DNA of 63,611 bases, filler included, from Rhizaria sp. SCN 62-66 (lineage: Eukaryota), in NCBI GenBank assembly GCA_001724265.1. It is 7 parts of 7 records of this genome, joined end to end, with 100 filler letters (N's around TTAATTAATTAA, not from the genome) between each part and the next. Parts side by side here need not be neighbours in the genome. Positions count along the whole stretch, not along the records: positions 19,776 to 30,702 come from MEDY01000686.1; positions 30,803 to 39,094 come from MEDY01000688.1; positions 39,195 to 46,940 come from MEDY01000689.1; positions 47,041 to 54,285 come from MEDY01000690.1; positions 54,386 to 63,611 come from MEDY01000691.1; 2 more parts are not named here. One strand, 5' to 3'. A program made the position numbers and the translations under genes. Every line of letters begins with the position of its first letter. The stretch's first letter is position 1. Below the pieces are notes generated by a model. The model was not told where the DNA came from. It saw nothing but the letters and a program-made list of their open reading frames with translations, and made no database searches. Positions 20,701 through 56,678 of the stretch are shown here, piece after piece.

Positions 20701-22426
20701 ATGAGTGACGACGAGTCGACCACGACAGTGGCGTACTTCTTCGCGAACGCCTTCAACGATAACGAGGACCTCTCCGACGGCAGCACTCACGTTGAGCAGT
20801 CCCGCGAAGACAAAGACGGCCGCGTGTCGGACTTGCTCAACGAGGACCGCGACTACAGCGAGACCTTCCAACTTCTCCGTAGCTCCGGACGCAGTATCTC
20901 CTATTTCATGCGCCCCGCGACGCTGGAGAACCTGCGCATCGTGAGCACCCCGTCGAACCCCGAATCGAGCAACGTCTCCGTGGTCCACATCTCGTGCCAC
21001 GCCACGCACGATGTGCTCGAACTGGAACAGAGCACGAGCATGACCTGCGACCGCGTTACGCGCCCGCGACTCCGCGACGCGCTCAGCGGCGATGGCGCCA
21101 TCGCCAGCGCCATGGAAAATCGCGCGCTGGCCAATGGGCAGGCGCCGCCTGCGTCGCGTAAGGGGTGCGTGCCGTACAAGCTCGCCGTGCTGCTCGTGTG
21201 CCACGGCGCCGCGTTCGCGCAGACGTTCCTGGACGCCGGCGCCGAGGTTGTGGTGACGGTGCACCAGGACTACGAGATCAACGATAAGGTTGCGGTCAAC
21301 TTTGCGACGAGTTTCTACGGCTATCTCATCAAAAACGGCATTTCCGTGCGCGCCGCCTTCAACAAGGCCCAGGGCGCTCTGCCGAAGTCCGAGGGCAATA
21401 AATTTGTGCTTTTGGAGTGCAAGGTTAATCACGCGGCCTCGCTGCACCTGTTCAACAGGATCTCGGCTAAGGAGCCCCCCGTGTCGCTCGACGCGCCGAT
21501 CGTGCAGTCCACGTCGCGCCCGCGCCTCATCGGCCGCGACACGGACATGAAGCTCATCACCAGTGAGCTTCACTCGGCCGGGCAGAACGGCGCGACGACA
21601 AACCAGGTTATGGTGTTGACTGGCGGCGCGGGCGTCGGCAAGGCCACGCTGGTGTAGTATCTCGCGCGCCGACTTGAGCTGCGCCGCACATACTGGCCCG
21701 TCGTCGTGCTCGACACGAAGGAGATCATCCAGGCGCTGAGCAACGCGCAGCTGGGCGCCAAGGAGCTCACGCCCGCGGTCGTCAACGCGACACTGCTGCA
21801 GTGCTTCCGGCGCTCGCTGTGCCGCGCGCTGGACATGCAGAGCGCGGCGGAAAACGCCCCCGCGATGCAGCGGAGCATGGAGGACATGTTCAAGATGCAA
21901 GGCTTCCTGCGCTCGCTGATTGAGGCGCAGCCATCGTTCCAGCAGACGCACGTCAACGTGACGCGGTATCCCACGGCGCCGTGCCTCGTGGTCATGCCCA
22001 AGGTGGACAGCATCCTGGTCCAGAGCAAGATGCTGCAGGACACGGTGCTGGCGTGGATCGACTCGTGTCGCCGCAACATCCCGGGCATGTGCTTCATCGT
22101 GACGTGCGACGACCAGCACTACGAGGCCGCCGAGGCCGACTGGAACCGCATTGCAGCACGCGTGTACCACCTGGTTCCGCTGGGCGCAGCGTCGATCCGA
22201 ATCATCATCAACTCCACCATCGCGTCGCAGCCGCTGCGCTTCACCTTCCAAGAGTGGTACAGGGAGCTGGGTGCGCGCGCTGATGCCAAGATCGCCCAGC
22301 TCAATGGCTCCGCCAAGGTCGCGCTCGACATCGCCAACAAGATCTCCCGTCTCAACTCGCACACCGTGCAGGCCTTCGACAAGATGTGGGAGGAAACCTT
22401 CGGCAAACTGCCCCTGGTCGGCGACG

Positions 22427-22463
<37 letters not shown>

Positions 22464-23559
22464 CGGCGGCAGTGGCGGTGACGGCAACAACGGCGGTCTA
22501 GGCCCCAACGGCGGCGGCGGCGGCGGCGGCGTGCCGTCTGCGCACGCGCGCGACTTCAGCGGCGCCCCGTCGACGGGCTCCACCGACGGCAGCACCAACG
22601 GCGCGGGCGAGACCTCGGCGGCCCACCACGCCGCCGTGTCGTATAACAACACCATGGTCGGCAACCGGGGCGCCGCTGCGGACGGCGCCGCGATCGAGGG
22701 CCACTACACCGTGCAGCCCGCGGATATCGCAGCGCAACAGGCGCAGGCGCAGGCGCAGGCCGAGGCTGACGCTCAGGCCGCTGCCGCTGCCGCTGCACAG
22801 GCCTCTTCTGGTGCTGGCGTCGGTGTGGGCGTGCGCAGCGCTGGCGAGCTGTTGGAGCAGCTATCGCGCGACTACGGCCAGTTCCAGGCGGTGTTGGAGA
22901 AGTGCGCCGCGGACGCGATGCCGTGGCAAGACTTCGCAGGCTACCTCAGCAACTGGTTCGTGTACTTCACTGGCGCCGCGCGACCGCTGGACCAGCTCGA
23001 CCTGGAGACGCTGCGCGAGCGGCTTTTTGGCGCGGCGGGCGGCGCCGGCAGCGTCGCCGTGTCTGCGATGGGGCCCGCCGTGCTGGAGGCGTGCAACACG
23101 CTGTTTTTCCAGTTGTTCCACACGGTGGTGCTGCTCAACGACCGCGTGCGCGAGCCGGGCGGCGTGGCGCTGTGGGACGACGGGCTCGTCACGGGCGTGC
23201 GCTCGCGCGGGTTCGTCGAGCAGTGCTTCCACGCCTGGCTCAACACGCCGCAGTGCGCCGCCGTGGGCGTGATGCGCGTCACCGTCTCCGGCGAGGAGGT
23301 CGGCATCGCCGTCGCGGGGTGGGAATCGACGCCGTTGGCCGTCGCAGCCCCGGAGCCGAACTCCGTCCCCGTTGCGCCGGGCATCCAGCACGTGCTGCTG
23401 CAGACGAGCTTCCTGGTCGAGCAGAACGCCGTACCAGTGCTCAGTCTGGTGACGGCCAATGTTGGTGTGCTCAGTCTGCTGACGCTGCGGGACGGCACGC
23501 CGCAGGCTCTGCCCATCACAACGCCGGAGTACCTACTTCAGCAGCAGCAGCAGCAGTAA
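20701..23559 (+). CDS. CHAT (caspase-like) domain + STAND/NB-ARC-like P-loop NTPase + STAT-type linker/SH2; 952 aa reading through TAG 21655-21657
   Basis: CHAT: VVHISCHA...LELE and LAVLLVCHG...INDKVAVNFATSFYGYL...SVRAAF. NTPase: LIGRDTDM and GGAGVGKATLV*YLARRL. C-terminal MPWQDF...RPLDQLDL...LWDDGLVTG...VMR...IQHVLL follows the STAT linker-SH2 pattern. Ends in TAA. Confidence 0.8.
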
Positions 23560-24247: not shown

Positions 24248-27200
24248 ATGTCAGCTTATTACGAACCAACGCTAGATAATCTCGTCAATGAGTTCTCCGG
24301 AGCTTTTAGTCGAGATTTGGTATCCGAAACCTTTATATCTATGAATAGGAATGTCGCCGCCGCCTTTGCTTCTCTCTGTGAATTCTGTGGACATGCTCCT
24401 GACTACGAAGCATTCCGGAGCCGTTCTGCGGCCGCAGCTGCTGCCAATCAACCGCAGCGCAGCCAACATCCACCGGCAGCGCATAACCCCGCGAAACATG
24501 GGTTTAATTTTGACTCGAACGCCCAGGCCTACGTCCCGCAGCACTTACAGCACAATGTCCCCGCCACGAACAACTATTTTAACAGTCAGCCTCAGAATTC
24601 GCCCTACGAATCCAAAAGCCCTCCCGCACACACGAACGTCTCTAATCCCCCGCCAACCGGCTACTTTGCAGCCCACAACATAAATGGCTACTCGGGCTAC
24701 GGTGCAAATCCTGCTGCCAACAGCGCATTTAGTGGATACGGGGTTGCGAACCCTGCTCCGAACAACGGGTATCCTGGCTACGCATCAGTGAATAACGGCT
24801 ACCCGGGCTCCGGTGGTGCCGCCGGCGCCGCCACGAATACTTTTAACGCTCCCTACCACGATCTGCCAAAACAGCACGCCAACCATGGCAATCCCCCCCT
24901 GCTTGCGAGACCAGCCGCCTCGACCGCCGCCGCCCCCACTTGCGCCGCCGCCCCCGCCCCCGCCGTGGACGAGCTCGCGCTAATGCTCGTCGCCTCGTGC
25001 TACCCGCTTGTGTCCCCCACGACGCTTGCGCCCGCGCTGTCCGCGGCCCGCGGCGCGGTCCCCGTCGCGCTGAGCGCGCTGCGGACCGTGCTGGCAACGG
25101 CGTACTCGTTCGACCCCGCCGCCGCGGACGCCGACCTAAGGCTCGCCGCGCTGACCGACGCAGAGGTGCGCGACGCCATGTACATGGTCGCCAACTACGC
25201 GCGCGCCGCGGCCGACCCCGCCGCCGTCACAGTCGCTGATGCCAGCAACAACACCGCCAACGCGAACTCCGGCGGGGGCGGATCCGACAACGACGATGGC
25301 AACGACGGCAACGGTTTCGTCACCAACAACGCCCCCGCTCTCATGGCCAACAACGCAAGTTGCACCAGCAGCAGCGGCAGTAAGGGTAGCAGCGGCGGCG
25401 ATGCCGCCACGCTCGGGTTCCTCACTCCCGCGCCCGTTACCGTGACCGCGTCTGGCCGCTTCGCCGAGCCGGCACAGTGGAGCTCGCAGGACCGCGCCGA
25501 CCACGAGCTTGACGCGCGGCTGAACCGCGAAGATCAAGCCGCGTTCGAGGCCGCAACCCAGAAGCTCATCGCGGAGATGATTGCGGATGACGTGGCCGCC
25601 AGTCCGCACCTCGCCCACGACATCGCCGGCGGCTACGGCAACGGCAACGGCAATAGTAGTAGTCTCAGCAACTCAGGCCTCATTGTCAGCGCGAACGGCG
25701 TTGTGCAGTTGGCACGGACCTTCTCTAGCGGCAACAGCAACAGCGGCGGCAACAACAAGAGCGGAAAGCGCAACGATAACGCCGCCGCCGCCAACGATGA
25801 CGACGACGCTCCGTTCGACGACGGCTACGGCGGCTACGCCAGCGCCGCCGCCGCGGCCCCCCCAGCACCGCGCCGCAAGACGATCGTGACGCTGCGGTTC
25901 AGCGATGGCCCGCGCCACCTGCCGCAGCCTACGTGTCCGTACACGCGCCTGCCGACGCTGGCCGCCACCAACAACAACAACGGCGGCGGTGGCAGCGGCG
26001 GCGGCGACGGCGACGACCTGATCGCGTCCGACGTCGAGGACGCTGTGCGCGCGCACGCACGCCGCTCGCGCCGCAGCAAGAGCGGGGCCGCGGGCGGCGT
26101 CAACGCGAGCTTCGACGACGGTAACGCCGTGCCGTGCTTCCGCGAGCCGCACCACGAGTGCTTCGGCAGCGGCATGTCGCAGCTCTGCGCCGACGGCACG
26201 CTGGCCCGTGCCTACGCCCTGCTCCCGCGGCTGCCGTCGCGCGGCGGGCTGACGGAACCCGCGGAGCCGAAGCTGACCGAGATCCTCGACCGGCTGGCCG
26301 CGCTGTACCCCTTCATCGGCGTCCGCGCCGAGCTGCGCGATCTCTTCGCCGCGGCGTGCTTCAGCACCGTCAACACCGACTTCCTCATCGGCGAGCTCTA
26401 CGGGCCCGAGTGCGCGCTGGCCAACCGGCGCGACGCGGCCGCGGCCGGCGACGGCAAGAAGCAACGCAAGCACGCGCGCGGCGTCGTCAAGGAGTTTGCG
26501 CCCGCGCCTGTGATTGCCTCGCTCTCGGCGGCGCAGGCGGCGTACCGCGCCAAGCACGCCGCGCTGCTGCGGCGCGAACCCGAGTGGGAGGCCGAGCTGC
26601 GCGACACGCCCTGCGGCTACAAGCGCAGCCGCTGGGAGGACGAGCTCCGCCGCCGCTACGCGCTATGGCTAAACGCGTATCTGCCCGCGTCCTACAACGA
26701 CGCGCTCCGTGCCGGCGGCGGCCTCCGCACGCCCCCGCGCCGCAACAGCGCCAGCACCGCTGCCGCCACTGGCGCTGGCGCTGGTGCTGGGATGGGCGAT
26801 GACGACCAGGACGAGCAGCAGCAGCAGCAGCACGACCAGGAGCGGCGCGTGACGTACGTCGGCGGCGGCATGAACGGCCCCGCCGCCGGCGGTCTTGGCC
26901 CGCGGCACTACGGCGCGTCCGTCCGCGAGCGCTACACGGGCGCCGAGGACGAGGAGGGCGGTCCGGGCTCGGGCGGCGCGATGACTGCGCTCGAGCAGCT
27001 GCAGCGGCACAGCGCGAACCTGAGCCGGCTGGCGCACTACGTCGACGAGCACCCGCTCTCGATGCTGTCCGCGCCGGGGGAGCTCGAGCACTGGGAGATC
27101 GCCGGCGCGTTCACCAACTTCCCCGTTCTCGAGACGCTGCTGGCGTCGCGGCTGCGCGTGCGCGTGCTGCCCGACACCGCACCCGCGCCCGCGGCGTATG

Positions 27201-27715
27201 CTGACTGGACGCCCGAGTTCGTGGTGCGTCACAAAGACTTCTTGGAGCAGACGGCCGGCATGGCGATGCACCAAATGCAGCAGCTGACCGAGGCAGAGCG
27301 GCGCCGCGTCGACATCACGCGCAAGAAGATCTACTTCCTCGTCGTCATGCGCGCCGTGCTCAGCCTGCTGCACTCGGATTACTCCGGCGCGCAGCAAGAC
27401 GGCAAGTCCTTCGACGACACCGGAAAGATCGACCTCCACGGCTTCTCCGTGCCGCACGCCATGAGCGCCGTGCACTTTTTCCTTAACCGCTTCGCGAAGC
27501 TGCACGCTATGAGGCAAAAGGTGCCGCGTGAAGTGACATTCCTCGTCGGGCGCGGCTCGCACTCGTTCAACGGGGCGCGGCTACCGCATGCTGTGCGCGA
27601 GCGCGTGGTCTAGATGGGCATCACGTCCGCCGCAAAGTCCTCCGGCAACGCCTTTGTGGTTGTGCCCATGAACGAGCTTGTCAGGGCCGCAAAGAGCTGG
27701 AAGCGAGAACAGTAA
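24248..27715 (+). CDS. CUE-like + PAM2 + Smr-domain protein (Cue2/N4BP2/CID7-like endonuclease); reads through TAG 27611-27613 to TAA 27713-27715
   Basis: N-terminal CUE-like helices and PAM2-like FNFDSNAQAYVP. The Smr domain IDLHGFSV...VGRGSHS...LPHAVRERVV*MG...SGNAFVV has its final strand after the TAG. Confidence 0.85.
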
Positions 27716-29029: not shown

Positions 29030-30398
29030 GCCGCAGTGTGTTGTCTAGCTTCAGTGCGTTGTCTAGCTTTAATGCGTTGTCGAGCAGCACGATGAGGTCT
29101 GCGGCCAACGATCAGGCACAAGGCTCCGTTCGCGCGCCGCACGCGGGCGCCCCCGAGAGGCCCTGTGCGAGTACGCCCTGCAGCAGGCCCGCCGAGACCA
29201 GGCGCGCAGCCAGCGCCGCGGGGCCGGCAGCAAGACGCGCGACGACGCCGGACACAAGGGCCTGCTAGAGGGCGCTAAGCTGCTACCAGCTGCTGCTAAC
29301 AAAGTCGGCGATCGCGGTCACCCGCGGCGCCGTGAAGACCGCGGCGCAGAGCTCGCCGTCGAGGTCGGCGGCGCAGCGCAGCAGGCGCACGGCTGTAAGG
29401 GACCCGTTGTCAACGCCGCGGAACAAAGGCAGCCGCAGTACGCCGTCAAAAGCAGGGCTGAGCAGAAACGCAGCAAAGTCATTGCGCAGTGAGTCGTCGT
29501 CCGCGGCCGCGCCGTCCGCAGCAGCGCACGGGGGTGGTGTGCAAGGGGGCGGTGTGCGTCGCGGCGGAGGTGAGAGCCGCGGTGAAGAGGCTGGCGAGCG
29601 CGGCATGTGCGTAGGGCGCCGGGGTGCCGACCTAGTCTCCCTTGGCGGCCGCCGCGCCGAGCAGCGGGACGAAGGGCGCGAGGTCGGCCGCGTAGTCCAT
29701 CCGCACTTCAGCCGCCGCAGCAGCAGCAGCAATAGACGCAGTAGCAGCAGACGCAGTAGCAGCAGGGACAGCAGCAGGTGCAGCTGCGGTGGTGGCGGCA
29801 GTTGCGAGGACTGACATGACATGCGAAATTGCGTACATGCAGGTGTGGTGCACAGCGGCCTTGCCCAAGTCATCTGTGCTGGCGTGCGCGGGGTCCGCAA
29901 GCAGGATGCGGGTCGCAGCAAGCAGGGACCGCAGCGCGGCGCTGCCGGCGATGCGGGGGCGCAGCTGAGGCGTGCTCAGGCGTGCGGTCTGGGCGATGAT
30001 GCCGAAAGCCATCGTGGCAACATGGTCGCTCCATCCGCAGCGGCTGACTCGCTACAACGCTCGGTGCTGCCGCTGCGTTCCTAGCTGTACAGTGTCTCGA
30101 GGATGAAGTCAAACAAACCGCTTTCGTCGCCAATCGCGACGCATGCATCTTTCAACGCAGTCTTATACCTCCTGGGATGGTACGACGCAGCGGTAGAAAA
30201 TGCGCGCATCAGAGCAACTAGTCCTTTGGAGCCAGGAACAAGATCATACGTCTCCGCGACCGCCGCGTGCATGGACAGAATAATGTCGGCGGCGTGGAAA
30301 CAGCTGTCACCGTCAAAAAGCATGTCGGTGATAGCTTTCTTGGAGGACGCGTCCTCCGTAGACCACTTGTTCCCCATTGTGTCGGAGCGATTTACCAA
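29030..30398 (-). pseudogene. Degenerate or mis-assembled paralog of the ARM-like gene at 14324-17338
   Basis: Homologous block FAAFLLSPAFDGVL...VFTAPRV...VVARL. At least two frame changes (about 30050 and 29530), an in-frame TGA at 29112-29114, several TAGs, and an 18-nt LDNALK repeat at about 29040-29085. Confidence 0.6.
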
Positions 30399-30802
30399 GT
30401 TGTGAGAGAGATGAGCTATTCTGTGTCAGTGCTCAGTGCGAAAGAAGGCCAAGACTCGAGTGTCTGCTTGTTTGTCTGTTTTCTTGGAAGGATTTACGCC
30501 GCAATTCCCTTGTATAGTTGCAAAAGAAGCTGTGTGGCAAAAGTGAAGACAAGTGTTAAACATGAATGAGCAGTCAAAGTATGAAACAACATACTCTATT
30601 GTAATACATGTGATAAAAGCGCTGGATCTGAAATAAGATTGAGGAAATCGTTTGTGGTCAGACTGGGACACAGCAAAGTCCAAGTGGGTTGAAGACTAGG
30701 AGNNNNNNNNNNNNNNNNNNNNNNNNNNNNNNNNNNNNNNNNNNNNTTAATTAATTAANNNNNNNNNNNNNNNNNNNNNNNNNNNNNNNNNNNNNNNNNN
30801 NN

Positions 30803-33800
30803 TGGCCGCGGCCGCGGCCGCGGCCGCGGCCGCCGCGTCCTGCGCCGCGGCCTCCGTCTCGAGGTTGAGCCGCTCCCAGGCCAGGGCCTCGTTGAACGCG
30901 TGGGGCAGGAAGAGGGCGGCGGAGGACGTCACTGCCTTGTCGAGCAGCGTCGTCAGCAGCGACGACGACGAGGATGAAGCCAGCGGCGGGACAGGACTGC
31001 CGTCGGCAGCAGCGCTCGCCCCACCCGCAGCTCCGGCTGAGGAAGCTGGCGAATCAGCTGAGTTCACAGCAGCAGCAGCGGAGGACGAGTCGCTAGCTGC
31101 AGCAGCGGTCAGGCCAGCGCCAGCGGTGGTGGCAGGGGACTCACCTGCCGCGCTCGCAGTCGCGCTCGCATCAGCCGCCGCAGCCGTCTTGCCAGTGTCG
31201 CCGCCAGTCGCCGCCGCGCCCGCGCCCGCGCCCGCGCCCAAGGGCGGCGCAGTCACGAACCCTGTCGCCGAGGACACAGCAGTGGCATTGGCCGCTTTGG
31301 CGACGGCGGCGAGCGCCGTGGTGATGACCTTGTGCAGCGTGAGGCGCCACACGCTGACCTGCTCGCCCAGGTCGCTGCCAACGCTCGTGCCCGTGTGCAG
31401 ACTGGCGAACTTGCCGCCCGTGGCGCCCCACACGCCGCCGCCGCTGGCGCCCGCAGAGACGACGGCGATGCGCGACGCCTTGGACACCGACTGCCGCCAG
31501 TGCTCGGCGCGCGCGCGCTCCTCACTGCCCTTGTCACTGCCGCCGGCGACACTGCCAGTGCCAGCGCCGGCACCGTTAGCGGCGGCGGCAGCGGCGTTGG
31601 CAGCAGCAGTGGTCGTGAGCGCGGCGGCGGCGGCGACGGCGGCGGCGGCGGTCTCCGCGGCCGCCACGGTCGCGGCCGAGGCGGGCGGCGGGAAGAGCGG
31701 CAGCAGCGCGGGGCGCGACCAGGCCTTGTTCTCGCCGAACAGCCACGCGGGCGCCGCGGTGCGCGTGAGCGACCCCACGCCATGCGACGGGCGCGGCAGC
31801 TCCGCCAGCGCCTCCGCGGCCGCGGCGGCCACCTCGGCGGCCTCAGGTGACGCCGGCGGGGCCAGCGTCTTGAGCGCGCGCGGCGGCAGCGGCACGTAAG
31901 ACGGCGGCGTGGACGACGGCGAGGGCGACGGGATGCGCGAGTACGTCGTGTCGGACAGCGCGGCGGCCGCGAAGCCGGCGCGGCCGATCATGTCGCGCGC
32001 CTGCAGCATCGCCTGCGCGCGCGCGCTGTAGGTGATCACGGCCACGGGCCCGCTGCTGCCGCTGCCGTCGCCCGCGCTCACGCCCGCGCCCGCGCTGGCG
32101 GATAGCGCGACGGTCGAGCTGGAGACTGCGCTGGCGCTGCCGTCGGCGCCAGCGCCAGCGGCCTGCGCGCGCGGCTCGGCCGTGGCGGCGCCGGCGCAGG
32201 GCACCTCGTGCGCCGCGCCCCAGGGCTGGTACAGCGCGTTGAGGAACGGCGCTAGCGCGCCCGAGCCGGCCGTGAGCGGCAGCGCGGCGAGCCCGCCGGT
32301 GCCGTGGAGCTCGATGTGGAGGCGCGCGACGACGACGGCGGCGGGCAGCGGCGACGCCGACTGGCACAACGACTGCAGGTATGCAGGGCCCTGCAGGTGC
32401 GGCGGCGCGGGTACCAAGGCGGCGGCGCGCGCGGCTGCGGTGAGGTGCGAGGGCGGGGACGAGGACGGCACGGAGGGCGGCGGCGGGCGGCGCGGGGACG
32501 GCGTCGCCGGGTCCCACTGCTGCGGAGACACCACCAGCGGCGTTGACGCTGACGCGAACACCACTGAGTGAGGATCGCGCAAGCAAGGAAAAACACAACA
32601 AAGAAACATGAGATTTAAAAGATAGAAATAGAACTAAGTTATATTCAGAGTGATTTTTTGTTTTTGTGCCGAAAATAGAATCGCTTGTAGCGTACCTGCG
32701 CCGAAGTTAGGAAGCGCCTTGTTGTCTTTGACGAGCTTTGAGTAGACGAGCCAGGGCCAGGAGCTTGCGTCAGTCGCCCCGCCCGCGGGCTCGGCGGCCG
32801 CGCCGGGCCACAGCGGCACCACGGGGGGTGCGCCCGCGGCCGCGGCGGCGGGTTCGAACGCCCAGGGACCGGGACACGCGCCGCCGCTGTCGCTGCCATC
32901 CTTGCCTGTGCCCGAGGGCAGCCAGCGCGGCCAGCGCAGCGCGCCCGCGGCGTGAGCGTAGCGCGCGGAGCCCAGCAGACTGAGCAGCGAGCCGTTGGCG
33001 TGGCGCGGGTACTTGTCGTCCGTGTTCCACGCCAGCCCGCGCGCGCCCCCGGCACCGGCCCCTGTGCCAGCGGCGGCTTGTCCGGCGGCGGCGGCGGCGG
33101 GGTCGGTCCAGCGGCCCTGGAGCTCTGCGACGGTGAGCGGGTGGCGCGCCAGGTCCAGCACCGCGCGCACGCGCGGGTGCGCGGCGCGCGCGGCCTCTGC
33201 GCCCAGCGTCGCCGACAGTGATGCCAGCGCGGGGTACGGCGCGCCCGCGGCGACAGAGGCCGAGGCGGCAGCGGCGGCGGCGGCGCAGGCCGCGGCGGAG
33301 GCAGCGGTCGCTGCGTTGGCGCTGTATGGCGGCGTCTCGGCAACGATGCGCGACGAAAAGCCGAACGCGGCGGCGGCGGCGGCGGCGGCGGTGGCAGCGG
33401 CGGCGGCGGAGGACTTGCTGAGGGCGTCGTAGCCGTGGCCGTCGCCGTGGCCGTGGCCGTCGCCGTGGCCGTCGCCGCCGTCGTCGCCGTGGCCGTGGCC
33501 GTCGACGTGGGAGCGGCTGCGGCGCGCGAGGGCAATCGCGCTCACGATGGCGGCCGCGGCGTCGGCGGGCGCGACCGACACGGTGCCGTTGACCGACACG
33601 TACCACAGCTCGTTCGCCTTGCTCGCCTTTGCGGCCTTGCGACTGGCCGTCGCCTCCGCCGTCGCCGTGGTGTCCGCCGCGGGAGTCGCCGCAGAGTCGG
33701 TCTCGGCGTCGGGCGCGGGTGCGGGCGCGTTGAGCAGCGAGCGCAGCGCCGGGCTGGAGGCAAGCACGCGCACGCGGCTCCACGTTGCGGCGCCGGCCCC

Positions 33801-34742: not shown

Positions 34743-34781
<39 letters not shown>

Positions 34782-36269: not shown

Positions 36270-39094
36270 ATGTCACGCTCTGCTGTTGAATCCAAGGGCT
36301 CTGCGGGTTTTCGCTGTGTGTTGAGCCTTCCGCAGGCCTCTGCACTCCAGCACTCTCTCCTTCGGGCGCACTTACTCGCTCCGGATCTTCTCGCGCCCGG
36401 CGACTGCGCCGCCACGGCCGCGCAAGACCCAGCGTTTGCGGCCACTCTCGACTACATTTAGTCCCGGCCCTCACAGTCCTCGTCGCTTTCGTTCTCAGCT
36501 CGTGCCAGCGCGCATGTCAACAGCGACACCAGCTTCGGCGCCGACTCCGACGCCGACGCCGGCAAGGTCGACGACGGCTTGGCCGTGTTCCGCAAGTAGC
36601 GCGTGGTGACGGTGGGCAGCAGGCGCGATACCATGATGTCCATTATTACTTTCTTCGCCGACACCCGACGCGACGGCGCGAAGGAAGCTCTGCGGCGCGC
36701 CGTCGACGCCGCCGCCAAGCACGCCGCCGCCAAGCACGCCGCCGCCGTTGCGGCCGATGTTCGGTCCAATCATGATGTGTCCTCGTCGTCGGGCACAGTG
36801 ACGCTGGCTACCGGGACCATCAATTTTGCGCTCGGCGACGACAAAGCCAGGGACAAGGAGTAGGCGATGAAGCGTGTGACGCGGACTAAGGCGGCTGCAG
36901 CCGAGGCCGCCGAGGCCGCCGCTTCGTGTGCCAAAGAAATCGCCGCGGCCGCGGACGCCATTGCGGCGTACTCCCCTTTTTACCACGCACTGCCTCGCAA
37001 CAACTCAAACAACAACAACAACAACGACAGCAGCAACAACAGCAGCAACAACAACAGCAGCGACGGCAACGGCAACGGCAACAGTGCAAGCGGCGCGAAC
37101 GCGGCCGGGATCAGCGGTATCGACGTCGTGAGCTCTCTCTTGCTCACGATGATGGCCTCGCCGCAGTCGCTCACGCGCGCTCAACGCTGCGCAGTGGTCG
37201 TGCGCGGCGGCCGCGTCTATGTCACGGGCGCGCACGCCCGCAGTCTGCTCTGCGGTGCGCGCGCCGGTCACAGCTCCAGCTCCAGCTCCAGCTCCAGCTC
37301 TAGCTCTGGCTCCAGCTCTAGCTCTGGCTCTAACTCTAACCTGGGCTCTGACGCCTGTGCCGGTGCCGGCGCGAGCGCGAGCGCGGCTGAGCAGTGCGCG
37401 GCCGCCGAGAGCCACGTGGCGAGTCTGCTGCAGGATACGATCACCTGCAACTGGGGCTTGGCCAGCGCCAACGACGAGTCTGAATATGACAACTGCGCCC
37501 TCAGCAGCGACTGCGAACCAGACTGCGACGGTGGCGCTGGCGCTGCCGCTGCCAGGGCCCGCGCCTGTGCGAGCATGAACGCCGCGGACAGCGAGGGCGA
37601 GGGCGAGGGCGTGGCCGATGGTCAGCGGGGGCGAGAAGGCGATGCCGCGAGCCCAGACGCTGTTGCGACTGTCGCCGCCGTCGCTGCGCAGGCTCAGCCT
37701 GGCACGCGTGCCGCCGACGGCGCTGGACGCGCGGTATGCGTCGAGGCGCCCGACTTCACCGTATCTTAGTGGCTCACCCTGGTGCTCGCCCAGCAGTCGC
37801 AGGCGCAACCACAAGAGGAAATGCAGAGTTTACTCGCATCGACAAAGTTTACTCTGACTGCGACAGCGCCCTTTGCTCCCAGCTCAGCTTTTGCGGTCTC
37901 GCACGCCTCCGTCTTCGCTCTGGACCCGGTCGCTGCTCTCAGCCCCGTCCCTCTGCAGCCGCTGGCCCCGTCGCGGGCCGGTCCCGCGCATCTGACTGTG
38001 AACACCGGCGGCGACGACTCAACCCACGCCATGTCCGTGCCCGACTTCAGGGCCCTGCTCTAGCGCTCGGTCTTGATGGAGATGCCGGCGACGCAGACGC
38101 CGCTGGCCGTGGCGCGCTCGCCCTCGATGGCAGCCTCGCGCCACCTCAACGTCAACTCGAGGTTCTTTCCCCACGGGCCGTAGGGCTAGCCGCCGTCGCC
38201 CCGGTGCCAATCCTGCAGCCGCGAGGCCAATGTCGTCAGCGGCCCGATGGACGTTCTGATGTTGGCGGAGAAGTCCGACCTCAGCCCGAGGTTCGACCTC
38301 GGCCAGACTAGCCACGACAGCGCGGCCGCGCTCAGGACTTCACGGCACACCGCCGACGCACTGCTCGCGGTTACTGCCCGGCTGTGTCACCGCTTTCAGG
38401 CGGCCAAGGCGGCCCGAGAGGCAACGGCCAAGACTGCGCGCGACGCGGCGCGGGCGTCTGTCAAGTTCGTGGGCTGTCTCACACCGACCGTGAGGGACGT
38501 CAACGAGGTGCTGCAGTCGCTGCTCTCAGCCACCGCGGAGCTCGTGCCCCCCGCGCTCGCCTCCGCCTCGGCTGCGGCGTCAACGTCTCACGCTGGTGTG
38601 GATGCGAGCACGAGAGACTGCGCCAGTGCAAGCGCGCTCTTGCGCGCGCTAGAGCTGCAGAAAGGTTCGGACAAGATAATGGCGCGAGCGCTGTCAGACG
38701 AGCTCGCCCGCAGCGACTTGTCGTGGTTGCAGCTGCAGGCGCACCTGCCCGAGAGGGCCCTGGACGTGGCCTCTGCCGACGCCGACGCCGACGCTGGTCC
38801 CGATGTTGGCCTGGACGCGCCGAACCACAAGGAAGGCGTCATCAAGAAGCACATTGAGGTGCCTGCGAGTCTATTCGTGCAGCAAGCGCTTGAGAGCAAG
38901 AGCAAGAGCAAGAGCGAGAGCGAGAGTGCGGGCGCCGACGTGCCTTAGGGCGGGGCCCCTCCTGACTGCGAGCGCGTCAGCAGCGTCGGCCACGAGCAGC
39001 AGGGCGCCGGCGTGCGCAAGGACGAGGGTAAGGGCGAAGGCGAAGGCGAGGGCGAGGGCGAGGGCGAGGGCGAGGGCGAGGGCGAGGGCGAGGG
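36270..39094 (+). CDS. Low-complexity hypothetical protein of at least 940 codons, one frame with 8 internal TAG codons; runs into the gap, 5' end uncertain
   Basis: Track ORFs 36270, 36603, 36867, 37782 and 38247 share one frame. They are separated only by TAG (36459, 36597, 36861, 37767, 38061, 38181, 38187, 38946), with no TAA or TGA. Confidence 0.75.
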
Positions 39095-39194: not shown

Positions 39195-39752
39195 AGCAAG
39201 CGTATTTGTGATCGCTTGCTCGTTTGGTTCGCTGCCATCTAGGTCTGCGTTCACGGATGCGCTAGCGGTCGCACTTGTGAAAGGCCAGACGGGACGTGAC
39301 ACCAGGAGTCGACCGAGGCGTGTGATACTCGGCGCATCCGTGGCACCAGTCATGCTCGCAAGTGTGTTTTGCGTCCTCGCTAGAACCTCATGTTCTTGCT
39401 TGGTGCGCTGTGACAGAAAGAGCCGCAGTTGCCTCGCCAGCGCTGACAGGGGAGCACAAGCTTGGGATGAATACTGCGCTGTTGTGGCTGAGAGTGTGGT
39501 CAGTTTGGCCTGGGTCTGCGTGTGTAAGGCTTCAGTGAGCACAGTCTCATCCTTGAGTTGCTGCGCCAGTGTGGCAATGCGCGGGGTGAGTGTGGCAGCG
39601 TGAGAGCGGAGCTCAGCATGCTTGGCGGCAACAGTGCTGATGGTGTGCTATTTGTGTTCGCCGTTAAGGAGGACACAATGACCACAGACAACCTTAACGC
39701 ACAGGTCGCACCAGTAAAGCATAAGCACGGGCTCGCCATGCTTGTAGCAATA
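39195..39752 (-). CDS. Exon encoding a B-box type 2 zinc finger + coiled coil (TRIM-like), with TAG 39650-39648 inside the HxxH motif; 3'-truncated, upstream exons unresolved
   Basis: Manual translation gives YCYKHGEPVLMLYWCDLCVKVVCGHCVLLNGEHK*HTISTVAAKHAELRSHAATLTPRIATLAQQLKDE, preceded by a pyrimidine-rich ...GTGTTAG acceptor. Confidence 0.8.
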
Positions 39753-41027
39753 CTAACACATATGATACAAGTATGAATCATAAGAGATAATATGAGTAAG
39801 GATAAATTGATACAGCAAGTTTTTGCATCGAAGAGATATCAAATCCGAGCTTCAGTTGTAGGCTTAATGATAATCGTTTTCGGAGAAGCACGTATAGAAC
39901 ACAGCAGCTTGATGTTGTCGCTGTATGATATCGGCATTCATGATGCTGAGACGTACATTAGGGTCGCGTTGCGCGGACTGGTCGAGAACAGAGACAGCAA
40001 CACCATTTGCAGTACTACCATCGCTGCCACGGCTGTTGCCCTTGCCTGGTGGAGTGTGACCATGGTGGGCGGACGAGACGACCTCGTCTTGCAGTTTACT
40101 TTCGGCCTGTGGCAGGAGAAGTGGTGAAGCAACATCAATGCTTATCAGTTAGTGAGCTTTGCATTAGTTGAGAGGCAGTTGTTGTCTATTCGATGCAATG
40201 ATATTGAAGTTTGAGAGTGAGTTGATACAGAGAAAGGTGAATTTGCAAAATATTGAGAGCGAGCACGAAGAGTCGTAACGCTGCAATTACCTTGAAGCAA
40301 GCTTGACAAAGACTTCGGGGGCAACCTTTGCCTGCGAATTGAATTGTTTTGCCACATGTCTTGCAGCTCGACACTCGTGATGTCATGGTGGGTGCCTAGT
40401 CAAAGCGCAACATGCGAAACAATGCAACTGGTTGCGAAGGTGAGAGAGGCGAAGGACGGCTTCAGGAAAATTGGTCCGTCGCAACCCAAAGTATCGAGTA
40501 TCTTAAAGCGCAATAAACAGAATATAGTAGGCACATTGGCTTGACCCCGAAGTACTTTACAATAATGTCATCTCATGTCGGCAATGGCACGATAACAACA
40601 TGTTGGTGAAGCGCGTCTCGACGTGCAAGATCTGCTTGAGTTCAAAGAGAGGTAAGGGGCACGCTTCTTGAGAGACTTGCGATGCAACACCACATCATTC
40701 ATCTTGAATAAACAATGTGAGCACACGTCATATTGATGTGGCTGGTTGATATGCTGTTATGCTATGTTTGCACTGCGCAGTAATGCTGAGGAAAAACGCG
40801 TTTCGATTAGCCGGCCCTTGCTTTTCCTGGATTCGATGGGGCCCAGCTGAAATCAGGGCGGTCAGCAGTCGCTCCCGCAATGCAACCCAGACGGCAGAAA
40901 ATGCTGTATTAATATGGCTAATTCTGCATTACATTTGGATTGCCAAATTCATAGCTCTTCGCACACGCACTAGTTCGAAGTGCAACTTTAGCCTTGTCCC
41001 TTCTTGCAGTGACTCGACTGCTGCTGC

Positions 41028-44180: not shown

Positions 44181-44927
44181 TTAGAGGATCTCACAGGCCT
44201 GCTCGAACTCGAAGCGGGGCGAGCGGTCGAACATGCCCTCGGCGTCGCCGTAGCCGAGGTTGACGAGCAAGACGGACTTGACGGGCTGGCCAGAGAAGAA
44301 CTCCTTGTCCGCGCCAGCGGCGTCAAAACCGGCCATGGGGCCCACGTCGAGGCCCAGGCCGCGCGCGGCGAGGATGAAGTAGCCGATCTGTGTGAGATTA
44401 GAAGAACAACAAAGAAGAATAAAGGAGGAGAAGTTGTGTCAGTGTGGGGGCAAAGGGTGAAACTATCTTGACAGTGCACTTCTTTAGCTCTGCGCTGATA
44501 TGCGCTTGAAAGATGTGTGAGTACGTACCTGGATGTTGATGTTCTGCATCGCGGTGCCGGCCACGTCCTGGGGGTTCTGGACGAAGTAGTCAATGCCGCC
44601 GCGGTAGCCGCCGCCGAGGAACTCGAGGTTCTTGACGAAGTCGTGGTCGGCACCGATCAGCGCCGTCACGGGAGCCGACTTAACGTTGGGGACGTTGCCG
44701 GGCAGCACGAACGGGAGGAGGCGCTCCTTGGCGGCGGGGGAGCGGATGAACTTCACGCGCATGGGGTTGCAGTTGAAGGCGTTAGGGCCGAACTTGACGT
44801 TATCGTAGAGGGCCTTGAGGACGGAGTCGGGGACGTCCTTGGGCTGGAAGCGGCGGAAAGTGCGGCAGTTGGTAGCCGTAAAGAGACGCTTCATCGCGTC
44901 GCTGGCGATAGGACCGGTGACAGCCAT
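44181..44927 (-). CDS. RutE/HadB-like nitroreductase (malonic semialdehyde reductase-like), 201 aa; 2 exons (44927-44529, 44387-44181)
   Basis: LFT...[50 protein letters not shown]...[17 protein letters not shown]. Phase-0 intron GTACGT...ACAG. Confidence 0.92.
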
Positions 44928-45916
44928 ACTGATGGTGGTTGAACTGGGTTGGCAGAGGAGAAGCGAGCAGAGTTGGGTGAGAAATTTGTGAGAGAGGGGA
45001 GATTGTGCAAGGTATATCATGCAAACGACTAAGATAAGTCAAGTGAGGAGTTATCCAACTATACTACATCACATAGGCGCAGCTTATACATCTTGGATGC
45101 TTTGTTCTGAGACGGAGCAGAGGTGCGTTCCACTCTGATCGTAATGAAGATTCACTCTGTGACCTAGCCGGTGACATTACAGACTCGCAGAGAATTGGGA
45201 TGCGCGAGTGTAGTACCAGTAAAATAAATAAATATCTAAAACGTGTTTGTAAGTCATAGCATTGTGTTATTTCTGTGTTTTTCGATGCTTGTCGGTCGTA
45301 TTTTGAAATCTTAAGCAGGGACGAAAACGAAGGAAACCTGCAAGCGACCGTGAGCAGCCTCGCCTCTCGAAACCATCGCTGCCACAAGCACTTTTTTCTC
45401 TCGTCTCACGGTCAAAATTTGGCAACGGCTCGACGACTTGGCTGGATCGAGCAGCTCTGCGTCGCAGCCCAGGAGGGAAACGCGGACCACGGCGCGCTTC
45501 GCGTTTCTGCATTCTCTATAGCATCGGTTGATTTTCTTATTTATGATCAAGGTGTCACCAAATTTTTAGAGTTTGTTTGCACTTTTTTTCTTGTTGCCTG
45601 ACGTCGTATTTGCTTTCAAAACCACATTTTTTTTGTGTTCATTTGCCGGTTCAACACTCTTCGCCCCCACCTTGGCCCTCACGCTTCCCCCACTCCTGCA
45701 CTCTCCCACCCTTGCCCCACGCTCTGTACACCAGACAACCACAACACCTGTCGCTTTTGGCACCCAGTTTTCTGTGTCTCCGGCGTCGCTCTACAGCTCT
45801 CACCAGCAGTCGCGTCGTCGTGTCCTTGAAAGACCAGCTCACGCAGCCCCCGTCTCGGCTCCCCTTCGGACTCTCGGCTTGTACAGTCCGCAAGCCCACA
45901 CGCAGCAACAGCAACC

Positions 45917-46795: not shown

Positions 46796-46865
46796 GTACG
46801 AGAGAGCGTATCGCCTCGGCGTAACACGCGATGGAAATCCTTTCATGATCATCTAGTGTAGTTTG

Positions 46866-46868
<3 letters not shown>

Positions 46869-46930
<62 letters not shown>

Positions 46931-46940
46931 TGTGTGTGTG
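46869..46940 (+). repeat. (TG)n microsatellite at the contig end
   Basis: Directly visible. Confidence 0.97.
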
Positions 46941-47979: not shown

Positions 47980-50659
47980 ATGTTTACAGCAGCTTCTATG
48001 CATCTTGGAGGCTTTGAGAAGCACGCACAAGCGTATTTAACCCGCATTGTGAACGCTTTATCCCTTCTCGAGTCATCCTCTCCATCTGACGCTCCTGCCG
48101 CCGTGGTTGCACTCGACAATGAGACCTCTCCTGGTGACGACGGCCCTTCGTTCTACGGAGCAGCGACCGATGATGAGGAAGAAAACGATGCACACAAACT
48201 CGCAAATAAGAGCGAGACACTCCGCAACGCAGCAATAGACCTCTGTATTGACGCCAACCTGACGATGAAGTTGCTTACACTGGGCTACTTACACCCTGAG
48301 TCGCAAACCATTCCACCTGTGACTCACCGCGACGACAGGGACAACGACGACAACAACGACGGTGGCAGCAACACAAAGCTTAACCAAATGCGCTATAGTA
48401 GCAGTGTTTCCGGTGACCAAGTGCTTGAGAGCGCGGCGAATCTCGTCTTCCGTCTCTCATACAGGCTGTCAGGTGCAATCAGCATTATCAACGCGACAAA
48501 AAACCCGAAGCACGTGCATGTGACTTTGGCCGACGTTGAAAAGTACAACAATGGCAAGTTTACCGACGAGGATGATGAAAAGTTTGCTGGCATTCGCAAG
48601 CATAAGAGCAAGGACGATGTTGATGAGAACGATGACACCAGCTACCCTTCCGTCCTTAACGACGTGTCAGTAAACTTCATGGCTAACATGAATTCTGGAC
48701 TTTCTCGCATTCCCGGAATCGTCAACAATATCGCCATGCACAGCGGGCTTCTTGCACGCTATCTCTGGGAAAACGTGCGTTAATCTTTTTATCTAACATC
48801 AAACCTTCCTGAATCACGTTTGAATTGATTTTATATCAAATCTATAGTTATTGTTTATGTAACGATCAATGGGCTATGTTTCTGCAGTCACAAGCAACTT
48901 TGAACAACAAGTCGGAAGCGCAAACTCATGACCGCTGCTGTGGCAGCGCGCAAGTTAATGACAGAAACGCACATAATTTTCACATAGATATACTTAAAGT
49001 AACTCGTTTTTTTGACTGACCTACTGCTATTGTTTTTCTATCATATCTTTGTTCGTTCTTTAGGGTGAGATCATGGCTGTGCTTTACGCTGTGGTGGGTG
49101 GAGTATGCTCAAGGCCTCTGAACTTTCCTCCTGATCTTGTCAACAAGTTCTTTGTCACACTGCAGACGTTGGTCACAAATCTCGGTAGCTGGGTGCACGT
49201 ACAGGCTTTCTTGCCATACCTGGCTCTGTTACCGCGTATTCTCGAAGCCGGTACTGATGATGCGTACACCACAGTTACTGATGACGACGGAACGGAACGT
49301 GCGGTTGTTGTGGAGTTAAGTGGTCGTAAGATGGCTGCGCTGATGGGCGCTGCAAAGAGCTACAACACTCTTTTGTCATACTTTATCCGGTATGACGTTG
49401 ACCGCGCAATGATAGCTTTGAAAAAGCCTGTCATTAATGCTGATCAAGTCAAAGACGGCAAAATCAACGCACAGTATACTGGTGAGGAAGAGAGCGCTTT
49501 TGAGCTTGCTCTTCGGCTTGGGACGGTTGACTGGAGGTCATATCAAAGCCTGCTTGCAGTTGTGGCAAAGAAAGCATAGCAGGTAACCCGGGCGAACTTC
49601 CTGAGCAAGAGGGGGTTGTTGCTGATTAAACGCATGTTTGTTGCGTACCTCGGTGATTCTCACATTCGCAACAGCACTAACTCGAACACTGTTGATGCAG
49701 TTGCTCGCGCGTTGCCGCCTGCTCTGGTTGACGACTGCGTAACGATTGCTGATAATTTATGGCGTGCTAACTTTTGCCTCAACTCATCCGACTCACTGCA
49801 CCAACTTGCTCTCCTAAGTCCTAATACAGGCTATCTCATCACAGAGATTAAGGCAATGGACCCGTTACTCCAGTGCCTCGGGCTTAAGCCGCTCTGCAGT
49901 CGGGAAGCCAGCCCCGAAAGCGGTAATGACTGCATCATTGACTCATGTCTTGCCGCTGCTGCTGACGCACAGGTTCCCAGCTTATCTCACTAGACGGTCA
50001 CAGCTCCCACCGCAGACGAAGACGAAGACGATGTCTTTGGCCTTAAAGACTATGACTTTGACGCGCTCATGAATCGGGCATTTGCTGATGACGATAATGA
50101 AGACAGTTATGACTCTCAACTGTATCGTTGCCAGTGGGGAGCGCTCACGTCCGTCTTGATGACAGCGCACACGCTGTGCAAGTTCTCTACTCATGACAGC
50201 CTTGTTGGCACTGCTTCAACTGCTGAGGATGATAACAGGTGTCGCAGTGACAACAATGAGAAAAACAGTGTGTCTGTAGGACAGTCTGAATATAGCGCAG
50301 GTTTGCGTAGTGTGCACCAGGATGTGTCAATGCTTGCTGTCTTCAAGTATCTAGTCTCTACCGGTCTTGTTGCCTTAGCCGCTAAGGTGACTGCAGCAGC
50401 ACTTGCGAACAAAAACAGTGATAGCACTGATACCGGTGTTGTGGGGCGTGACTCTGTTTCAAAGGACGGTTGTAACGCCGCTAAACAAATGCTACTTAAC
50501 TTGCTGGAGTTTGAAGAGACTGCTATCAGCAAGACCGCTGCTGAGAGTAGCAACGCGTTCAGTCTGTCAGTGAACGTTGTCAAGACTGTGGTCAGTCGTG
50601 CTGGAGGCGACAAGCTCATCAAGATGCTTGAAGAGGCGCGCACAAGCTTACCGGAGTAA
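47980..50659 (+). CDS. 796-aa helical (ARM/HEAT-like) hypothetical protein; 2 exons (47980-48774, 49064-50659) with TAGs at 49577 and 49991
   Basis: Phase-0 intron 48775-49063 (GTGCGT...TTTAG). Track ORFs 49073, 49616 and 50069 are one frame separated only by TAG; the gene ends in TAA before an AT-rich UTR. Confidence 0.75.
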
Positions 50660-54152: not shown

Positions 54153-54285
54153 TTAGAACTTGTTGAAGAGCTGCACGAGCCAGCCATCCTTGGGGAAGGA
54201 AGGAGCGAACACGACAGAGATAATGGCCGAGAGCTTGATGAGGATGTTGATGGCAGGGCCGGAGGTGTCCTTGAGCGGGTCACCG
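54153..54285 (-). CDS. C-terminus of a membrane H+-translocating pyrophosphatase (V-PPase), 5'-truncated by the gap
   Basis: [28 protein letters not shown]...FNKF-TAA is the conserved mPPase terminal motif; it is absent from the ORF track. Confidence 0.92.
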
Positions 54286-54385
54286 NNNNNNNNNNNNNNN
54301 NNNNNNNNNNNNNNNNNNNNNNNNNNNNNTTAATTAATTAANNNNNNNNNNNNNNNNNNNNNNNNNNNNNNNNNNNNNNNNNNNN

Positions 54386-54500
54386 GGGGGGGGAGCAGCG
54401 TTGTCACGCAGGGCCTTGCGTAGCGCGTCCATCGCGGTTAGCGTAGCAATATCACCGCCTGAAGCGGCCGTACACACGTAGCGGTCACGGTCACTGTGAC
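54386..54500 (-). CDS. Possible N-terminal fragment of another importin-alpha-like ARM protein
   Basis: TLTAMDALRKALRDNAAPP resembles the ARM1 ARKLLSxExxPP motif; cut by the gap. Confidence 0.3.
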
Positions 54501-55202
54501 AGCGTCTGTGACCTCGGCAGGAGTGTCTCACATGATCAACGTTAGACTGGAAGACAAAGGAGCGCAGCGCGGCTGCACGTATTAACGTAACCCATTGAAG
54601 CTCGGACGTCGCGTCAATCGTAGATAGGCGCGCACACGGTGCTCGTGTGCAAGGTCATGGTGAAGTCGAGCTCTGCACAAAACCTAGCCGACGTAGGTTA
54701 GTGATATCAGAATGATGTCTTCTTCCCAAGAAGTTTAATTAAGGAATTGTGCAGATATTATTCTTAACTTCCATCTATCCATATATTGGCACAAGTGACG
54801 ATCCGATTTAAGACATCTGACAAGCGAATGTCGGGCGCTTTCGAGCAAGAGAAGGAGAGGGAGGATGGCGCGACTCAGAATTCGATCACTTCGATCTGAG
54901 AAGCAACAGTTGACACATTGGTGCTTTTTAATTTACTAACTTTGTCTATTAAATCAAATATGTTTTTCTTGTTGGCACGTCTTTCCACACGAAATCTATC
55001 GTTTTCTTCATGCACTGCCGAAGGGTGGTGAGCAGGAGGTCCGACTACTATCTTTTGCACAAACAGGCTCTTTTGGGCCTTAGTTAGCGGATCAATTTCC
55101 CGACTTTATAACTTGAAACTCCGCTTTGATATTTTATGTGCTGTAGCTTTTGAGTACAACAACAGCAGAGTCTGAAACAGCGTACGCTCCACTGTTTCCG
55201 TG

Positions 55203-56678
55203 ATGTCTACCCCATTTGATCCATTCTCGTTTCATGAGGCACTCGCCGACCTGATGTCAGTAACACCAACGTCACTCGACGGACTTCGCAGTCTGAGGAG
55301 GCAGAGCGCGGCCTAGAACTACGATCTGAAGACTTTCACGACGGAATGTCTCGAGCACGGCGTGCTTGACTGGCTTTTAAGGTCGCTGGAGTATTGTGCC
55401 GACGCGGACGAGCCTCAGCGCACGCATGAGACGCTTTGGGTTTTTACGAACTTGGCTGTGACATCCGAAGGCTGCCGCGCGCTGCTATTACACGGTGTTC
55501 CGGATAAGCTGTGTTGCGTACTCTACCTTGACCAACCCACGGACATCGTCGAAAACGCGCTTTGGACGCTGGGCAACATTGCTGGCGAGGGCCGCGCGGC
55601 TGTTGACTCGCTCATTGAGCGCGGTGTCTTTGCGCACGTGTGCCGCTATATGGCGGATGTGTACGGGGGAACAGTCCACATTCGGGCCGCTTTGCACAAT
55701 GTTCTCTCGTGGACAGTATCAAATTTCCTCAGGGTCACGCCACCGCTCCCGTTCAGAGTCACTGTGACGGCCTTGCCGCAGCTCTTTTTCGCGCTACGCC
55801 ACTTTCCCGCCGCGCGTTTGACTGAAGCTCTGAACGACGTGTTGTGGTCCCTGTCGTTTGTGTTCCGCGAGGAGAGCGTAGGGGTGCGCTTTGAGTACCT
55901 GTTCCTGAGCGACGACGACATCTTTTTGCATATCCTTGCCCAGTTGCACGTGAGCCGCGGGTTGCGGACGCCTGCGCTGCGCATTGCCGGCATAGTTGCC
56001 TCGCTTTCCCACGGCGAGCCTGTCCGTGCGTTTACCCCGCCCGCGCTGGCGCACCTGCAGCGCTTTGCACGCTCTCTGGGACCCACGGACACCCACGCAA
56101 TGAAGGAGCTGTCGAGGTTGCTGTCAAACCTGCTGTCCGAGGAGGCCGCGATGGTGTCGCGCGTGCTTGCGTCCAACACGGTCCAGACGCTTATCCCACG
56201 CGTGCCCACGCCGCCGCACGGCGACGCCAAGTCCAACCTGTGGCGGGTCGCGAGCGAGCTGCTCTGGGTGATGCTGAACTTACTGACGAATGCGCCGCCC
56301 GACGACGGCGGCAAGCCCGCCATGGCGCTCGTGCTGCTAGGCTCCGGCGCGGTGACCTACTGCGCATCGACGCTGGCCGCCGCGGCCGCGCTGCCGGGGC
56401 CGCTGCCCAATAAGCCGCTGGGCCGGCTGCTCACGGTTGTGCTCACTGTCGTGCGCACGATGGTCCAGACCGGCGATACTGGCGCGGACCTCGCGGTGCG
56501 GGCCCAGGGCGCGGAACCCCGCAACGTCTTCCTGGCCGACTTCGATGCGGCGGGCGGCTGTGACGCGCTGGTGAAGCTGATCCAGAGCGAGCAGGCGCTC
56601 GCCAGTGCACGGGACGAAGCCATGCAACTGCACGAGCTGTTGGTGAGCATTTTGGGCGACACGTCCTAGTTGCCGTAA
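55203..56678 (+). CDS. Importin-alpha-like ARM-repeat protein without an IBB domain, 491 aa; TAGs at 55314 and 56667, stop TAA at 56676
   Basis: ETLWVFTNLA, ENALWTLGNIAGE, SWTVSNFLR..P, DVLWSLS, TPALRIAG. The in-frame ATG at 55203 lies upstream of the first TAG. Confidence 0.82.

Follow-up and report, generated by a model that had tools for sequence, protein, structure and literature searches.

A 63,611-nt stretch of the assembly of Rhizaria sp. SCN 62-66 (GCA_001724265.1), hereafter the window, very probably follows a nuclear genetic code where UAG serves as a rare sense codon and translation is terminated by UAA, the main stop, and by UGA. This reading was reached because TAG triplets stand in frame within intact domain-encoding genes, are identical across samples, and occur in DNA with TAA at gene ends defined by homology and with splicing of the nuclear type. 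The original prediction had likewise taken TAG as a sense codon and TAA and TGA as stops, in agreement with the TAG-only interruptions found in intact genes, the domains that cross TAGs, a conserved TAG column, and TAA at two homology-defined C-termini.

Structure and origin of the window

Six linkers, each composed of 44 N, TTAATTAATTAA and a further 44 N, split the window into seven contigs, with the following coordinates.

Contigs 1 to 7: 1-9820, 9921-19675, 19776-30702, 30803-39094, 39195-46940, 47041-54285, 54386-63611
Linkers: 9821-9920, 19676-19775, 30703-30802, 39095-39194, 46941-47040, 54286-54385

Any feature drawn across linkers is an artefact. The change of code had been placed on one feature, 20701..56678; the TAG sites within it are real, but the single stretch is not, as its coordinates span five separate contigs. 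A 7.3-kb stretch of contig 3 was present, in whole or in part, in 15 public runs of 9 studies, which were bioreactor, wastewater, activated-sludge and microbial-fuel-cell metagenomes, the best-matching run being the probable source. The window is thus made up of short contigs binned together for one uncultured organism.

In-frame TAGs and their coding context

All 16 in-frame TAGs that had been reported for seven genes were found as TAG in the frame and on the strand given for them, and none of the seven frames (20701-23559, 24248-27715, 36270-39092, 49073-50659, 51659-52891 and 55203-56678 on the plus strand, 39195-39761 on the minus strand) contained an internal TAA or TGA, as had also been claimed. 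In-frame TAGs at 29634, 29285 and 29267 (minus strand) were absent from that earlier list. Coding sequence with TAGs thus comprised at least eight genes on five contigs (3, 4, 5, 6 and 7), as follows.

20701..23559, plus strand: CHAT + AAA_16 (STAND) NTPase gene, 952 codons, TAA end, one TAG at 21655
24248..27715, plus strand: protein with a C-terminal Smr-like domain, 1155 codons, TAA end, TAG 27611 located 34 codons before the stop
29112..30425, minus strand: multi-frame gene starting with MGNKWS, TAGs 29634, 29285, 29267 and one near 30130, end at TGA 29112-29114
36270..39094, plus strand: orphan low-complexity open reading frame (ORF), 941 codons, running off the contig end, eight TAGs
36459, 36597, 36861, 37767, 38061, 38181, 38187, 38946, plus strand: TAGs of the orphan ORF, 4/8 passing the both-sides test described below
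39195..39761, minus strand: B-box zinc-finger protein, 3' part off the contig, TAGs 39650 and 39755
49073..50659, plus strand: protein of unknown family, 528 codons, TAA end, TAGs 49577 and 49991
51659-52891 and 53003-53644, plus strand: beta-lactamase-fold protein, two exons, TAA end, TAG 51782
55203..56678, plus strand: Armadillo-repeat (Arm) protein, 491 codons, TAGs 55314 and 56667

Long open frames were rejected as evidence for the code. ORFs of at least 300 amino acids numbered 68 with TGA read as sense, 37 with TAG, 31 with TAA and 27 under the standard code, and the ORF-length argument is weak because TGA-as-sense opens more long ORFs than TAG-as-sense; the closure of GC-rich antisense frames was mostly by TGA. 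A symmetric test was therefore built. Six long genes free of TAG served to train a 3-periodic order-2 Markov model, which scored 40 codons on each side of every stop triplet in every frame, with the central codon omitted. A site passed if, before as well as after the triplet, its own frame outscored a non-coding model and all five other frames. This test superseded a codon-usage window classifier that was too strict (2903 codons called) and uninformative.

The window contained 3868 stop triplets in any frame (1913 TGA, 1090 TAA and 865 TAG), only 11 of which were coding-like on both sides: ten TAG, one TGA and no TAA. The binomial probability that at least 10 of 11 would be TAG, the rarest triplet, was about 3e-6, calculated from these counts. 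The passing TAGs were 21655, 36459, 36597, 36861, 37767, 49991 and 55314 from the earlier list and, beyond it, 29267 and 29634 (minus strand), plus 19093 in a pseudogene. In a second, frame-opening test on 21 standard ORFs of at least 100 codons with coding-like last 40 codons, the median open run after the terminator was 73.5 codons for TAG (n = 10) vs 6 for TAA/TGA (n = 11; one-sided Mann-Whitney p = 0.012), both groups being contaminated by a few antisense frames. Overall, 19 TAGs in about 12,600 codons gave a usage of about 1.5 per 1000 codons, two rows of the tally (c3 exonC and c4 minus exon2) being excluded because of a wrong register.

The sole TGA with a weak coding signal on both sides, at 29112-29114 (minus strand), closes the ORF 29112-29975. 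Most probably it is a genuine stop with GC-rich 3' sequence behind it, the alternatives being selenocysteine or an unrecognised exon structure.

TAGs within domains and other proteins

In the CHAT-STAND gene, TAG 21655 stands five residues past the Walker A lysine (GAGVGKATLV-TAG-YLARRL). The Pfam match to AAA_16 (E 1.9e-8, 35-42 bits, cut-off 32.6) covered residues 1-141 of the segment and crossed the TAG at residue 45; CHAT scored 25.2 bits (cut-off 24). The Markov margins at this TAG were 0.09 and 0.34, and it was followed by 633 open codons with a GC content at third codon positions (GC3) of 0.89, then by TAA. A word- and length-limited search found no homologue of this STAND protein. It fuses CHAT, a caspase-like protease, to STAND AAA_16 and has a long C-terminal part with Asn-rich and Ala/Gln-rich runs, an architecture that recalls immune or cell-death switches, here in a protist.

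At the second gene, the alignment to the Smr chain of NEDD4-binding protein 2 (82 aa) ended at chain residue 63, just before TAG 27611, and a stop at this TAG would, on that alignment, cost about 19 residues of the Smr fold. A single-sequence AlphaFold model of the segment had a mean predicted local distance difference test (pLDDT) score of 57.4, too low for use; that the model runs beta-alpha-beta-alpha-beta and places a strand beyond the TAG is suggestive at most. In the B-box protein, TAG 39650 sits between the last two zinc-binding histidines (H-K-TAG-H), and all eight Cys/His ligands were present in the translation. TAG 39755, the third codon past the ATG, may instead be a splice acceptor.

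In the beta-lactamase-fold protein, TAG 51782 comes after a signal-peptide-like N-terminus, and the Pfam family Beta-lactamase matched with 77.5 bits (profile 40-165) and 24 bits (profile 166-326). The 49073-50656 protein had no homologues in the word- and length-limited search, and the TAG upstream of it, at 49061, probably supplies a splice acceptor's AG. The orphan ORF was represented in public protein sets by three inter-TAG fragments, and its TAG rate was far above the rate elsewhere in the window.

Stop codons at gene ends

Two C-termini were defined by homology:

54153..54285, minus strand: C-terminus of a membrane H+-pyrophosphatase (V-PPase), 43 codons, TAA end
44181..44951, minus strand: nitroreductase-family gene, two exons, TAA end, Nitroreductase 29.9 bits

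Both had been said to stop at TAA at homology-defined ends, which the alignments confirmed. Residues 1-40 of the pyrophosphatase fragment aligned to residues 726-766 of plant chains of 766/774 aa (E 3e-10), that is, to the chain end, and TAA followed. The match between nitroreductase residues 15-80 of 85 and positions 129-194 of a homologous chain of 199 aa (E 5.5e-14) stops five residues short of that chain's C-terminus. Neither of these two homology-defined ends was a TAG.

The remaining genes had been said to end in TAA or TGA and never convincingly in TAG. This holds for the TAA and TGA ends: about 13 gene ends were identified in the window, ten at TAA, three at TGA (none of the three defined by homology) and none at TAG. 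It would have to be amended by one TAG end if TAG 56667 is a stop, and this triplet may be a real one. None of the 1090 TAA triplets had coding sequence on both sides, and because TAA also terminates conserved ends, a code in which UAR specifies Gln or Glu (table 6, peritrich-type) does not fit here.

Relatives of the Arm-repeat protein and a pseudogene control

The Arm-repeat protein of contig 7 had seven homologues with 43-60% identity, all metagenomic. A metagenome scan revealed members of the family on just four short JGI metagenome contigs (L001-L004), and scans of GTDB genome contigs and viral contigs revealed none. The L003 protein, 47% identical, carries two in-frame TAGs in the homologous N-terminal region. 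One of them shares MAFFT column 38 with TAG 55314, where the other three loci have E, E and D and a fourth homologue has Thr; the other L003 TAG is opposite a TCG Ser codon in three members and an AAA Lys codon in one. In L001 (2104-2396), 41 open codons lead from a TAG close to the C-terminus to the contig end, which suggests read-through at TAG there as well. The open codons past the L001 TAG are similar in composition to the acidic C-terminal tail that precedes it. Because TAGs occur in both L003, one of them in the same column, and L001, the trait is common to related genomes, with one TAG position kept over deep divergence. A conserved TAG column is not what a pseudogene would predict.

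A decayed member of the same family lies at the end of contig 2:

18743..19675, minus strand: decayed Arm paralogue, pseudogene

Here a conserved Trp has given way to TGA, frameshifts have occurred and 27 nt are duplicated in tandem (RFVGNVAAL twice); the copy is an internal control for decay in this genome. Unlike it, the TAG-bearing genes have no such TGA, frameshifts or duplication. At the TAG of the pseudogene (19093), homologues carry Leu or Val (TTG, CTG, GTG). An assignment of UAG to Leu on the basis of this copy was considered and rejected, because the Leu-aligned TAG sits in a pseudogene.

Independent assemblies and splicing

Logan contigs of four runs were aligned to 30900-39040. Run X3, from a different study, provided pieces on 35987-36997 and 37344-39040 with no differing letters, confirming all eight TAGs of the orphan ORF, and X4, from a third study, bridged TAGs 36597 and 37767. 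X3 and X4 are dated 2017 and 2025. Since the TAGs are identical in X3 and two are bridged in X4, they are not assembly errors. No strain variants were seen at TAG sites in the aligned runs, the only variants being 33631 G>A and 38392 G>A. One contig each of X4 and X7 had an extra G behind 34622, inside a large minus-strand gene of contig 4, which could stem from strain variation or from an error in a homopolymer.

One intron of the window was missing from a contig of a complementary DNA (cDNA) library:

32564..32695, minus strand: GT..AG spliceosomal intron of 132 nt, containing an in-frame TAG in surroundings of about 22% GC

Record 17 of X5, a 165-nt contig of that library, lay on 32475-32563 and 32696-32771, skipping the 132 nt, which are AT-rich and, on the minus strand, start with GTACGC and end with CTCAG. 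The library was rated 'RNA? (probably DNA)', and the splicing is documented by one joined contig together with canonical boundaries. Because the GT..AG intron is missing from this contig, the DNA is of the nuclear type and not organellar, viral or prokaryotic.

Encoded residue and proposed decoding machinery

TAG was read as different residues and the Pfam scores at three domain columns were compared. The summed bits for AAA_16, Smr and B-box were as follows.

K 88.9
Q 88.7
E 88.1
S 87.1
L 83.7

With AAA_16 taken by itself, the lowest scores were those of Y and L. Homologues carried E/E/D/T at the column shared by two TAGs and S/S/K/S at the other. On these columns, the residue is probably polar, Leu is unlikely and aromatic residues are disfavoured, and Ser, Glu, Gln and Lys are not separable with five or six sites. 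Leu scored about 5 bits lower over the three Pfam columns and its sole aligned TAG was that of the pseudogene, these being few sites. Gln fits (88.7 bits), and no TAG fell on a conserved-Gln position.

The UAG-only codes described by Panek et al. (2017, PMC5304391) involve a transfer RNA (tRNA) with anticodon CUA, which does not pair with UAA, and an eRF1 that does not recognise UAG; in Iotanema, altered stop recognition has been linked to a GTS motif in eRF1 (PMC9161772). By analogy, UAG in the present organism would be decoded by a tRNA with anticodon CUA unable to pair with UAA, and eRF1 would have lost its recognition of UAG. UAG would thereby serve as a rare sense codon, with UAA (mainly) and UGA still terminating. 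A search of the window against Rfam returned no matches, and the window contains neither an rRNA nor a phylogenetic marker gene.

Other features of the window

The end of contig 5 (46862-46940) consists of a (TG)n and that of contig 4 (39040-39094) of a (GAGGGC)n simple repeat, which probably account for the assembly breaks there. GC3 was only 0.5-0.58 in three large genes, 14324-17365 (minus strand), 47968-50659 (plus strand) and 59243-63514 (minus strand), vs 0.8-0.9 in others, and two of these three genes have no TAG. The low values may reflect heterogeneity of codon usage in one genome or contigs of mixed origin. The P-type ATPase of the window fell into generic ATPase clusters of the ESM Atlas.

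Weighing of the readings

Several observations weigh against UAG as an established sense codon. Just 7 of the 16 listed sites passed the strict two-sided test, the other nine being close to the end of a gene or contig, adjacent to a further TAG or part of a gene with lower GC3, and TGA 29114 (minus strand) passed weakly (margin 0.06). TAG use is very uneven: the orphan ORF holds 8 of about 20 TAGs, and an exhaustive comparison with 1.84 billion representatives matched it solely to its own fragments. Two of the domain matches are near or below threshold, Smr at 17.3-23.6 bits (cut-off 25.7) and zf-B_box at 19.9-24.9 bits around a cut-off of 24.1 (profile 6-41 of 42). TAG 56667 stands 3 codons before a TAA, at the point where the signal of coding sequence is lost (downstream margin -0.74). 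None of the RNA-library pieces shown for X5 and X7 extended 31 letters beyond a coding TAG in both directions; the sole cDNA-library piece over a TAG (38168-38318) had just 13 letters on one side. No tRNA gene was found in the window (63.6 kb) or in L001-L004 (9.3 kb), too little sequence to expect one, and the eRF1 gene is absent from the 63.6-kb window. Finally, that all seven contigs derive from a single organism was assumed, not proven.

Some of these points would be accommodated if the code were ambiguous, with UAG both a stop and suppressible through context-dependent termination or through readthrough by a suppressor or near-cognate tRNA. The position of TAG 56667 at the end of the coding signal would then be expected, and the rarity and unevenness of TAG, with eight in one orphan ORF and none in five genes that are 900-1400 codons long, would suit a codon that is inefficiently decoded and survives chiefly in genes under weak constraint. 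Such a leaky code is nevertheless improbable, as the TAGs after Walker A and in the B-box would truncate essential folds unless efficiently decoded, a 47%-identical homologue has a TAG at the same column, and no homology-defined end is at TAG. With UAG as a sense codon, its uneven spread could mean that constrained genes shun a codon whose decoding is inefficient. Under the standard code, pseudogenes or errors of sequencing and assembly are a very unlikely source of the interrupted frames, even though a real TAG-carrying pseudogene lies in the window and the ORF with eight TAGs has no homologues. Decay should also produce TGA, TAA and frameshifts, as it did in the contig-2 pseudogene, whereas coding-like frames were interrupted by TAG ten times, by TGA once and by TAA never; moreover, identical TAGs appear in assemblies of other studies made years apart, and homologues from another metagenome carry in-frame TAGs too. 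Hardly any credence is left for TAGs lying in unrecognised in-frame introns or in chance-open frames of GC-rich DNA. Open frames do arise easily here, one in-frame TAG does lie inside the 132-nt intron, which is divisible by three in length, and TAGs 49061, 46859 and possibly 39755 are at likely splice sites. However, local GC at the listed sites was 0.51-0.75 (0.43 at 56667) vs 0.22 around the TAG in the proven intron, codon-position GC patterns with GC3 up to 0.96 flanked most of them on both sides, and Pfam domains cross three TAGs. A nuclear code with UAG as a rare sense codon accordingly remains the preferred reading.

Significance and relation to known UAG-only codes

Few lineages are known to have a nuclear code that gives UAG and UAA different meanings, and they show that cytoplasmic translation can separate both codons (PMC5304391, PMC11687900). 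The organism is abundant and recurrent in wastewater and bioreactor communities, and offers a non-ciliate system with existing DNA and RNA data. Standard gene callers truncate its proteins at every TAG, and of one gene the public sets hold just the fragments between TAGs, so that metagenome catalogues misstate the organism's gene content systematically. Low UAG usage is possibly an early stage of codon capture, and the whole bin could reveal changes in tRNA(CUA) and eRF1. The searched literature reported no UAG reassignment for a protist of wastewater or bioreactors, species lists in supplements lying outside that search. It is conceivable, if doubtful, that a new protist lineage of engineered water systems gave UAG alone another meaning, in an event separate from those in Iotanema, exLh, Scotinosphaera and the ciliates, with a residue new for a UAG-only nuclear code that keeps UAA as a stop; Glu is an example, because the shared TAG column holds E/E/D.

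Known UAG-only reassignments include Iotanema spirale (Gln) and the rhizarian exLh (Leu) (PMC5304391), the green alga Scotinosphaera, with UAG as Ser and UAA as stop, and Protocruzia and phyllopharyngean ciliates, with UAG as Leu or Gln (PMC11687900); in an oligohymenophorean ciliate, UAA specifies Lys and UAG Glu (PMC10553269). In these ciliates, as in the present organism, UAG and UAA have separate meanings. The present organism differs in its use of UAA as a stop, its GC-rich genes and its proven intron of 132 nt. Typical ciliate macronuclear DNA is AT-rich and has very short introns.

Scotinosphaera shares a UAG-only change in a non-ciliate, and its residue, Ser, also fits here (L003 TAG vs TCG Ser). 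It is, however, an alga, whereas the window bears no algal sign and the samples are reactors and sludge. With exLh (Sainouroidea), the change of UAG alone, UAA and UGA as stops, and an uncultured source seen from sequence data only are shared (PMC5304391). In contrast, UAG is Leu in exLh, the worst fit here (83.7 vs 87.1-88.9 bits for S, E, Q and K), and is much denser there (384 in 71 genes), with UAG avoided in ribosomal proteins (PMC5304391). The closest resemblance is to Iotanema: UAA is the main stop, genes carry roughly one or two UAG each, and the residue is likely to be polar. There too, only UAG occurs in frame and UAA is the main stop (104 UAA vs 15 UGA, compared with 10 vs 3 here), and UAG use is moderate in both, 204 in 126 genes there and about 20 in about 19 genes here (PMC5304391). 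Yet Iotanema (Fornicata) is a gut endobiont, whereas the present genome comes from wastewater and bioreactor metagenomes and has a coding GC3 of up to 0.9.

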